Position numbers and translations under genes: made by a program
Shown: positions 10,686-10,786 of the stretch, piece after piece
Numbering within the stretch: the stretch's first letter is position 1
How the letters are laid out: each line of letters begins with the position of its first letter
NCBI RefSeq assembly: GCF_003334405.1
Contig: NZ_QOWM01000004.1
From: Escherichia coli
GTDB lineage: Bacteria; Pseudomonadota; Gammaproteobacteria; Enterobacterales; Enterobacteriaceae
Direction: 5' to 3' (one strand)
DNA: 64,000 nt
Notes under the pieces: generated by a model
Database searches by the model: none
What the model was told of the DNA's origin: nothing
What the model saw: only the letters and a program-made list of their open reading frames with translations

Positions 10686-10786
10686 TTGCCTGATGCGCTA
10701 CGCTTATCAGGCCTACATCGTTCCTGCAATTTATTGATTTTGCAAGACTTTGTGGGTCGGATAAGGCGTTCACGCCGCATCCGGCA
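10686..10786. repeat. BIME: two REP (palindromic unit) elements downstream of opgH
   Basis: gcctgatgcgctacgcttatcaggcctac (10689-10716) and gtgggtcggataaggcgttcacgccgcatccggca (10752-10786), the canonical E. coli REP consensus in opposite orientations. Confidence 0.85.

Follow-up and report, generated by a model that had tools for sequence, protein, structure and literature searches.

Four intergenic sites of the window, a 64-kb stretch of E. coli DNA, carry members of the REP (palindromic unit) family in BIME architecture and in the expected genomic context; the elements vary in the population, and two of the sites have been used as targets by insertion sequences. Overall, the data are best explained by bona fide REP/BIME members that are transcribed as hairpins and act locally, a reading to which we assign a probability of about 0.9. 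REP and BIME sequences have belonged to the textbook knowledge on E. coli since the 1980s, and the elements described here, REP98 to REP102 and the element downstream of opgH, presumably REP97, are already known and annotated in MG1655. The initial annotation of this region was correct in its observation, its interpretation is supported in part, and the elements themselves are ordinary.

Identification and arrangement of the REP units

Alignment of the whole window to MG1655 (NC_000913.3) revealed 99.975% identity, with 15 mismatches and one gap of 1 nt. The corresponding MG1655 region spans positions 1,102,730-1,166,300, the chromosome is K-12-like, and the gene order is csgD ... opgGH, yceK, lpxL, pyrC, the flg operons, rne, rluC, yceF, the fab cluster, ptsG, ycfP, and ndh. 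The enterobacterial chromosomal context deduced earlier from the repeats is therefore real, and confirming it for the window is one of the modest uses of these elements. All REP units are extragenic and located 3' of genes, between opgH and yceK (site 1), flgF and flgG (site 2), the convergent rluC and yceF (site 3), and ycfP and ndh (site 4). REP names and MG1655 coordinates (Table 1) were taken from the supplement of a preprint (10.64898/2026.03.23.713779); the RefSeq annotation table of NC_000913.3 contains no repeat_region rows. Six annotated REP elements are present in the window, not only the four sites listed initially. The two overlooked ones, REP98 downstream of lpxL and REP99 between the convergent genes trhO and yceI, were recovered by searching for the REP outer stem.

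Table 1. REP units and associated features in the window. Mismatches are from ungapped consensus scans, edits from the edit-distance scan; free energies are those of predicted hairpins.
Site	Feature	Position	Strand	Annotated element (MG1655 coordinates)	Properties
1, opgH/yceK	z1-type REP unit	10688..10716	- (GTAG-first strand)		0 mismatches to z1; -13.2 kcal/mol, z -4.5
1	L linker, RIB/RIP type	10717..10751			Rfam RF02751 match; exact IHF consensus inside
1	y-type REP unit	10752..10785	+		GTGG for GTAG; 3 mismatches to y; -18.2 kcal/mol
1	opgGH intrinsic terminator, outside the repeat	10803..10834	+		12-bp hairpin followed by U run; -16.4 kcal/mol, z -5.7
lpxL	Short hairpin, REP outer stem (GCCGGATGC/GCATCCGGC)	12897..12923	-	REP98 (1115627-1115653)	-21.7 kcal/mol, z -6.4
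trhO/yceI	Short REP-stem hairpin	15139..15159		REP99	-16.1 kcal/mol
2, flgF/flgG	Decayed z1 unit	31858..31885	-	REP100 (1134587-1134684)	Foot ATAG; 7 edits; in register with site 1
2	L-type linker	31886..31921		REP100	Part of the 65-nt repeat shared with site 1 (86% identity)
2	Perfect y-type REP unit	31922..31955	+	REP100	0 mismatches to y; -20.9 kcal/mol
3, rluC/yceF	y-like unit, first unit of REP101	43200..43233	+	REP101 (1145929-1146003)	z-like T/A in outer stem; GTTG foot; 3 mismatches to y; -22.8 kcal/mol, z -5.3
3	Degenerate second unit of REP101	43248..43276	-	REP101	9 edits from y; -15.5 kcal/mol
4, ycfP/ndh	Palindrome of two inverted z-heads (CGCATCAGGTA...TACCTGATGCG)	62965..62999			-20.8 kcal/mol, z -5.5
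4	y-type REP unit	63011..63044	+	REP102 (1165740-1165814)	GTGG foot; 5 mismatches to y; -18.8 kcal/mol
4	Short z1-like unit	63059..63085	-	REP102	CTAC intact on + strand; 3 edits from z1

REP units had been reported at four positions, and a consensus search was suggested as the way to check them. Scanned without gaps, the y consensus GTAGGCCGGATAAGGCGTTTACGCCGCATCCGGC (34 positions) matched a y unit at each of the four sites with zero to five mismatches, whereas none of 100 dinucleotide shuffles came below 11 mismatches. The perfect z1 at site 1 was found in the same way. A bit-parallel edit-distance scan with the y, z1, and z2 consensus sequences added the z1-like unit of site 4, the degenerate y of site 3, and the z1 of site 2, and detected no z2 unit in the 64-kb window. 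With seven edits, the z1 of site 2 does not stand out from noise by itself and is credible only because it lies in register with site 1. A generic repeat finder returned the same four y copies, together with a 65-nt repeat of linker and y common to sites 1 and 2 (86% identity), and short diagnostic REP motifs were counted more often than in every shuffle. Matches to GCCKGATGCG at 46758 and 52270 were rejected as REPs; they are located inside fabH and mltG and lack a partner arm. All units are predicted to fold into hairpins (-10.4 to -22.8 kcal/mol, z -2.4 to -5.5), which show the typical 2x2 internal mismatch in the case of the y units. While the units were rightly placed in the REP family, calling them canonical was too generous, as a perfect consensus match was obtained for just two of nine.

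In 5,426 E. coli genomes, megablast placed the 101-nt element of site 1 at a median of 33 positions per genome, so that it belongs to a dispersed family. The median for the site 2 element is 28. Sites 3 and 4, with a median of one place, are too short or too divergent for megablast, and their assignment is based on the consensus match instead.

Palindromes that are located 3' of genes and form stable hairpins could also be ordinary intrinsic terminators, or GC-rich inverted repeats resembling REPs by chance, and a weak terminator-like pattern was indeed called within site 4. Such an interpretation is extremely improbable. Identity to the family consensus is far beyond chance, dozens of dispersed copies are present per genome, and a U tract follows none of the REP hairpins. 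Based on the missing U tracts and the consensus statistics, the REP hairpins were ruled out as intrinsic terminators. The true terminator of site 1 is a separate hairpin between the BIME and yceK; it was missed by the terminator scanner, presumably because A/U runs extend its stem, and was identified by folding. As this terminator follows the BIME, the mature transcript does not end in the REP hairpins.

BIME-1 elements consist of a single pair of z1 and y across a conserved long L linker, often with an IHF site (PMC3333891), and BIME-2 elements of tandemly arrayed y and z2 units joined by a short linker (PMC3333891, Ton-Hoang et al.). By these definitions, site 1 is classified from its sequence as a complete, textbook BIME-1, or RIB. 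Its z1 unit starts 11 nt past the opgH stop codon (10674-10676). Within the linker, AATCAATAAATTG (10727-10739, - strand) matches the IHF consensus WATCAANNNNTTR exactly; in 64 kb, eight matches to this consensus were obtained versus 2.55 expected. The y unit matches the first hairpin of Rfam naRNA4, the consensus of which derives from REP325 with alternating Y and Z2. In the naRNA4 consensus z2 is the long z, and the 29-nt z found here is therefore z1.

The minus strand of site 1 (10709-10751) also matches Rfam family RF02751 (ES036) with 47.9 bits, above the gathering score of 37.6 bits, which could be taken to indicate a gene for the sRNA ES036/CssrF antisense to the opgH 3'UTR. Yet the model consensus is itself composed of the BIME-1 L linker and the GTAGGCCU foot of z1, and the match therefore reflects membership of a repeat with dozens of copies per genome. 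The linker of site 2, although 86% similar, scores no match, and no sigma-70-like promoter was detected on either strand between 10500 and 11000, which is a weak test. Minus-strand RNA from this region would be explained more simply as a decay fragment protected by the REP. A literature search for "ES036" yielded grant numbers only. An sRNA gene at this position is accordingly considered very unlikely, and the Rfam match at this position should be read with caution as nothing but a BIME-1 linker.

For the flg operon, a single REP unit at 31922-31957 had been noted. This unit exists and is a perfect y, with a half-match of 41.8 bits to Rfam naRNA4, but the element extends over a whole BIME-1 (31858-31955), which is annotated as REP100. 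Its IHF-like site, AATCGATAAATTG, has one mismatch in the core (ATCGA).

Sites 3 and 4 are short atypical BIMEs, in which y is paired head-to-head with a z-type unit that is degenerate or short. The two units of REP101 are inverted and separated by a linker of 14 nt, and only 7 nt separate the second one from the stop codon of yceF (43283-43285, - strand). In REP102, the y and z1-like units are likewise 14 nt apart. Three units had been counted behind ycfP, two of which are REP units spanned by the REP102 annotation. The remaining one, the first in order, a palindrome of 35 nt starting 8-10 nt past the ycfP stop codon, was rejected as a full REP: it matches none of the y, z1, and z2 consensus sequences in either scan and lies outside REP102. 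It is nearly invariant in seven strains.

The GTAG foot of z1 is intact at site 1, that of y at site 2, and that of the z1-like unit at site 4. Mutated feet occur in the y units of sites 1 (GTGG), 3 (GTTG), and 4 (GTGG), and in the z1 of site 2 (ATAG). Other strains kept GTAG at sites 1 and 4; strain NU14, for example, has GTAG in the y unit of site 1 where the window reads GTGG.

Variation among strains and species

In the comparison among strains suggested earlier, which covered 5,426 complete E. coli genomes, sites 1, 3, and 4 proved nearly universal but variable. Site 1 with its flanks is full-length (at least 80% coverage) in 5,391 genomes, REP101 in 5,419 (at most seven without full coverage), and REP102 is present in 5,413 with 93-100% identity (at most 13 without full coverage). 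In O157:H7, the first unit of REP101 lacks its foot and outer stem, together 11 nt. REP102 is a hot spot of polymorphism: K-12 and ST131 have a short z unit, EC5502, 2020CK-00188, and RMDEC465 a long one of the z2 type, and in strain W46 a stretch of 69 nt comprising y and linker has been lost between direct repeats of CCTGATGCGC.

The proposal that these repeats are potential targets of IS elements received direct support. In strain JNE12-007, an IS1397 of 1,432 bp resides in the loop of the second REP101 unit, flanked by a duplication of AAAC. In strain RMDEC465, IS621 is inserted at ...ATCAGGC-CT-ACC, within the CTAC that forms the foot of the z unit in REP102. Both are clean natural cases of REP-targeted insertion and may be useful as such.

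The most variable of the four sites is the flgF-flgG spacer. The BIME-1 is carried by 3,477 of the 5,426 genomes, and about 1,950 genomes (~36%), including O157:H7, O111:H8, and IAI39, contain an alternative spacer that is shorter by ~35 nt. Its core is a GC-rich repeat unrelated to REP, CCCTCGCCCCTTTGGGGAGAGGGTTAGGGTGAGGGG, which we take to be boxC-like. This repeat is also dispersed, with a median of five megablast places per genome. Comparison across taxa, with one genome per species, revealed spacers of 13 nt in Salmonella and Citrobacter, 8-31 nt in Enterobacter, Kluyvera, and others, and 137-171 nt in all Escherichia. The BIME-1 allele occurs in K-12, E2348/69, and E. albertii, the boxC-like allele also in strain E69 and Escherichia sp. 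E1V33. In E. albertii, where z1 has an intact CTAC foot, and in one divergent "E. coli", both z1 and L are intact, but y has collapsed by an internal deletion of 18 nt. Both alleles share flanks that Salmonella does not have; the core was therefore replaced, not inserted twice. The BIME-1 and the boxC-like repeat are two old alternative alleles of this spacer in Escherichia. Buttiauxella izardii and B. noackiae carry REPs of their own at this position, which were acquired independently, and their congeners have spacers of 31 nt. Mildly new material is limited to this population and cross-species picture, which may serve to illustrate how repeats turn over in an intercistronic spacer of a flagellar operon. 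On their own, the REP copies of the window matter little.

Such turnover could indicate that the flgF-flgG junction is a recurrent landing pad for repeats, the alleles of which tune flagellar gene expression. If so, the alleles would set the ratio of FlgB-F to FlgG-J transcripts through attenuation or upstream stabilisation, so that motility or basal-body stoichiometry would be adjusted by natural non-coding variation. We regard this idea as speculative and rather improbable.

Possible roles of the elements

By origin, the REPs would be non-autonomous hairpin repeats. REPs are recognised in single-stranded form by TnpA_REP (RAYT), a domesticated Y1 transposase, for which both the GTAG foot and the bulge in the stem are essential (PMC3333891); according to the literature, mutations in GTAG abolish its activity. 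Three of the four y units, those of sites 1, 3, and 4, have a mutated GTAG and are therefore probably inert as TnpA_REP substrates.

Regarding function, the elements would be transcribed within 3'UTRs or, at site 2, within an intercistronic spacer. The stable RNA hairpins may then slow 3'->5' exonucleases and may favour pausing and partial Rho-dependent termination. This corresponds to the best-supported current model, in which REPs are context-dependent elements of 3'UTRs that shield the mRNA upstream of them and cause partial Rho-dependent termination (10.64898/2026.03.23.713779). The supplement of that study contains several entries for the sites analysed here (10.64898/2026.03.23.713779 supplement). 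A Rho-utilisation peak and a bicyclomycin-sensitive transcript span the ycfP 3'UTR including REP102, and a second such pair lies just past REP101 in the direction of rluC read-through. Overlapping 3' ends of convergent transcripts were mapped at REP99 and at the first unit of REP101, where the convergent 3'-end hairpin covers MG1655 positions 1145926-1145969. The normalised counts given there are 1.5-fold higher for flgF (45,079) than for flgG (30,173), which hints only weakly at attenuation or upstream stabilisation at REP100. A Rho-related role is the one with the most locus-specific data; the initial annotation does not mention it. Effects of REPs on mRNA half-life vary genome-wide and depend on context, as reported in the literature.

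The distances from stop codon to hairpin are 11 nt for opgH, 7 nt for yceF, 8-10 nt for ycfP, 28 nt for flgF, and 31 nt for rluC. Liang, Rudd and Deutscher reportedly found in 2015 that a REP located 15 nt or less from a stop codon stalls terminating ribosomes. The hairpins within 15 nt, those of opgH, yceF, and ycfP, might therefore interfere with terminating ribosomes.

Binding of IHF had been suggested for the repeats in general. Judged from the linkers, it is likely at site 1 with its exact consensus, plausible at site 2, where binding would be weaker than at site 1, and not expected at sites 3 and 4, in which the L linker is absent. Gyrase binding was the weakest of the earlier proposals. 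The documented strong targets are BIME-2 elements with tandem arrays of y and z2 (PMC6379681; PMC3333891); as no z2 is present here, a preference of gyrase for these sites should not be assumed. The supplements of gyrase Topo-seq and of RepRanger have no entry for these genes.

As regards function, neutrality is a serious rival. The elements may be REPs and BIMEs by descent and yet neutral, decaying relics, that is, selfish or hitch-hiking DNA tolerated in non-essential spacers. The mutated GTAG in three of four y units, the decayed z1 of site 2, and the degenerate second unit of site 3 are in line with decay. Tolerance is suggested by deletions and unit swaps between strains (REP101 of O157:H7, REP102 of W46), by the insertions of IS1397 and IS621, and by the flgF-flgG element, which is replaced in ~36% of the genomes and absent in Salmonella, Citrobacter, and Enterobacter. 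On the other hand, sites 1, 3, and 4 were kept with at least 80% coverage in 5,391 to 5,419 of 5,426 genomes, and even degenerate units retain the potential to form hairpins. Rho-related signals and transcript 3' ends map to several of the elements, and in published data canonical REPs are associated genome-wide with biased expression of their neighbours, which also argues against neutrality. For sites 1, 3, and 4, their retention and the mapped termination signals speak against it. Mere relics are thus possible but appear the less convincing explanation, and REP/BIME members acting locally as transcribed hairpins are preferred.

Comparison with known repeat systems

Site 1 resembles BIME-1/RIB/RIP elements in all sequence features, a single copy consisting of a perfect z1, an L linker with an exact IHF consensus, and an inverse y at the 3' end of a transcription unit. 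It differs in the present strain by GTGG instead of GTAG in the y unit. Site 2 has z1, an L-type linker, and y in the same layout, but its z1 is decayed, the IHF core contains one mismatch, and its location is intercistronic, inside the flgB-J operon and not at the operon end.

Sites 3 and 4 share with BIME-2, REP325, and naRNA4 the head-to-head arrangement of y and a second unit at a distance of ~14 nt, a geometry similar to that of the S linker in the naRNA4 consensus. Unlike these systems, both sites are devoid of z2 and of tandem amplification, and the partners of y are z1-like or degenerate. A long z2-type unit is found at site 4 in other strains only.

The two insertions correspond to what is published on the REP specificity of IS1397 and IS621 (PMC1525189). 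IS1397, a member of the IS3 family, was found at the expected position in a hairpin loop with a 4-bp duplication, and IS621, a member of the IS110 family, at the expected position at the CT core within ...ATCAGGCCTAC. Alleles carrying an IS are rare among the 5,426 genomes, and the window itself is free of them.

The presumed boxC-type repeat is dispersed and fills the flgF-flgG spacer as the BIME-1 does elsewhere; in contrast, it has no sequence relationship to REP and does not occur in the window. Repeat turnover in this spacer fits the established view of BIMEs as a major source of intergenic polymorphism.

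The flgF-flgG spacer

The spacer between flgF and flgG was compared over the region equivalent to positions 31830-32000 of the window (loci L003-L006, L018, L027, L046, L048, L100, L103, and L106 from other genomes). In most Enterobacteriaceae the two genes are separated by 8-31 nt, with 13 nt in Salmonella and Citrobacter. The spacer of Escherichia measures 137-171 nt and occurs with two alternative repeat alleles. Among E. coli genomes, about 64% carry BIME-1, which consists of a z1 unit, the L linker, and a y unit, versus about 36% with another repeat, which we take to be boxC-like. 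Two species of Buttiauxella have their own REPs at this junction, an independent gain.

Variation at REP101 and REP102

Natural insertions into REPs of this region are found at two elements. In strain JNE12-007 (locus L007, 3217-4648), REP101, between rluC and yceF, carries IS1397 (1,432 bp, AAAC duplication) in the loop of its second unit. In strain RMDEC465 (locus L008, about 3271-4550), the z unit of REP102, between ycfP and ndh, is interrupted by IS621 within its CTAC foot, at the CT core. Also at REP102, precisely the 69 nt that the direct repeats CCTGATGCGC delimit (window 62991-63069) are absent from strain W46 (locus L011). Through this difference, the upstream z head is fused to the downstream z tail, leaving a single z unit. 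This could be a deletion, or it could represent the ancestral state predating a duplication that contained the y unit.

An AT-rich inverted repeat was also noted directly 5' of ndh. The GTAG-type strand of the y units at 10752, 31922, 43200, and 63011 is on the plus strand in all four cases, the same as the upstream genes, an agreement that is not significant (n=4).

Rfam matches and short REP hairpins

The RF02751 consensus consists of the BIME-1 L linker and the z1 foot, nothing more, so that automated annotation would label every BIME-1 an sRNA. The four other Rfam matches are all expected in a K-12 region.

Selected features of the window
Feature	Position	Strand	Remark
ES056 sRNA	523-614	-	near csgD; Rfam gathering level
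RF02751 (ES036/CssrF sRNA)	10709-10751	-	above gathering score
REP98	12897-12923		after lpxL; short hairpin, REP outer stem GCCGGATGC/GCATCCGGC
REP99	15139-15159		trhO-yceI (convergent); short hairpin, REP outer stem GCCGGATGC/GCATCCGGC
PyrC leader	19880-19929	-	Rfam gathering level
rne 5'UTR element	41664-42000	-	Rfam gathering level
SraB	43861-44029	+	Rfam gathering level
Direct repeats CCTGATGCGC	62991-63000 and 63060-63069		bound the 69 nt absent from W46
Inverted repeat	63283-63336		25 nt, arms 4 nt apart; within ndh regulatory region

The initial annotation, which listed REPs at four sites (opgH, flg operon, rluC-yceF, and ycfP), was incomplete in omitting the annotated REP98 and REP99. 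The hairpins of both elements are devoid of the GTAG foot and of an inner stem, and they resemble the collapsed y unit of E. albertii at flgF-flgG.
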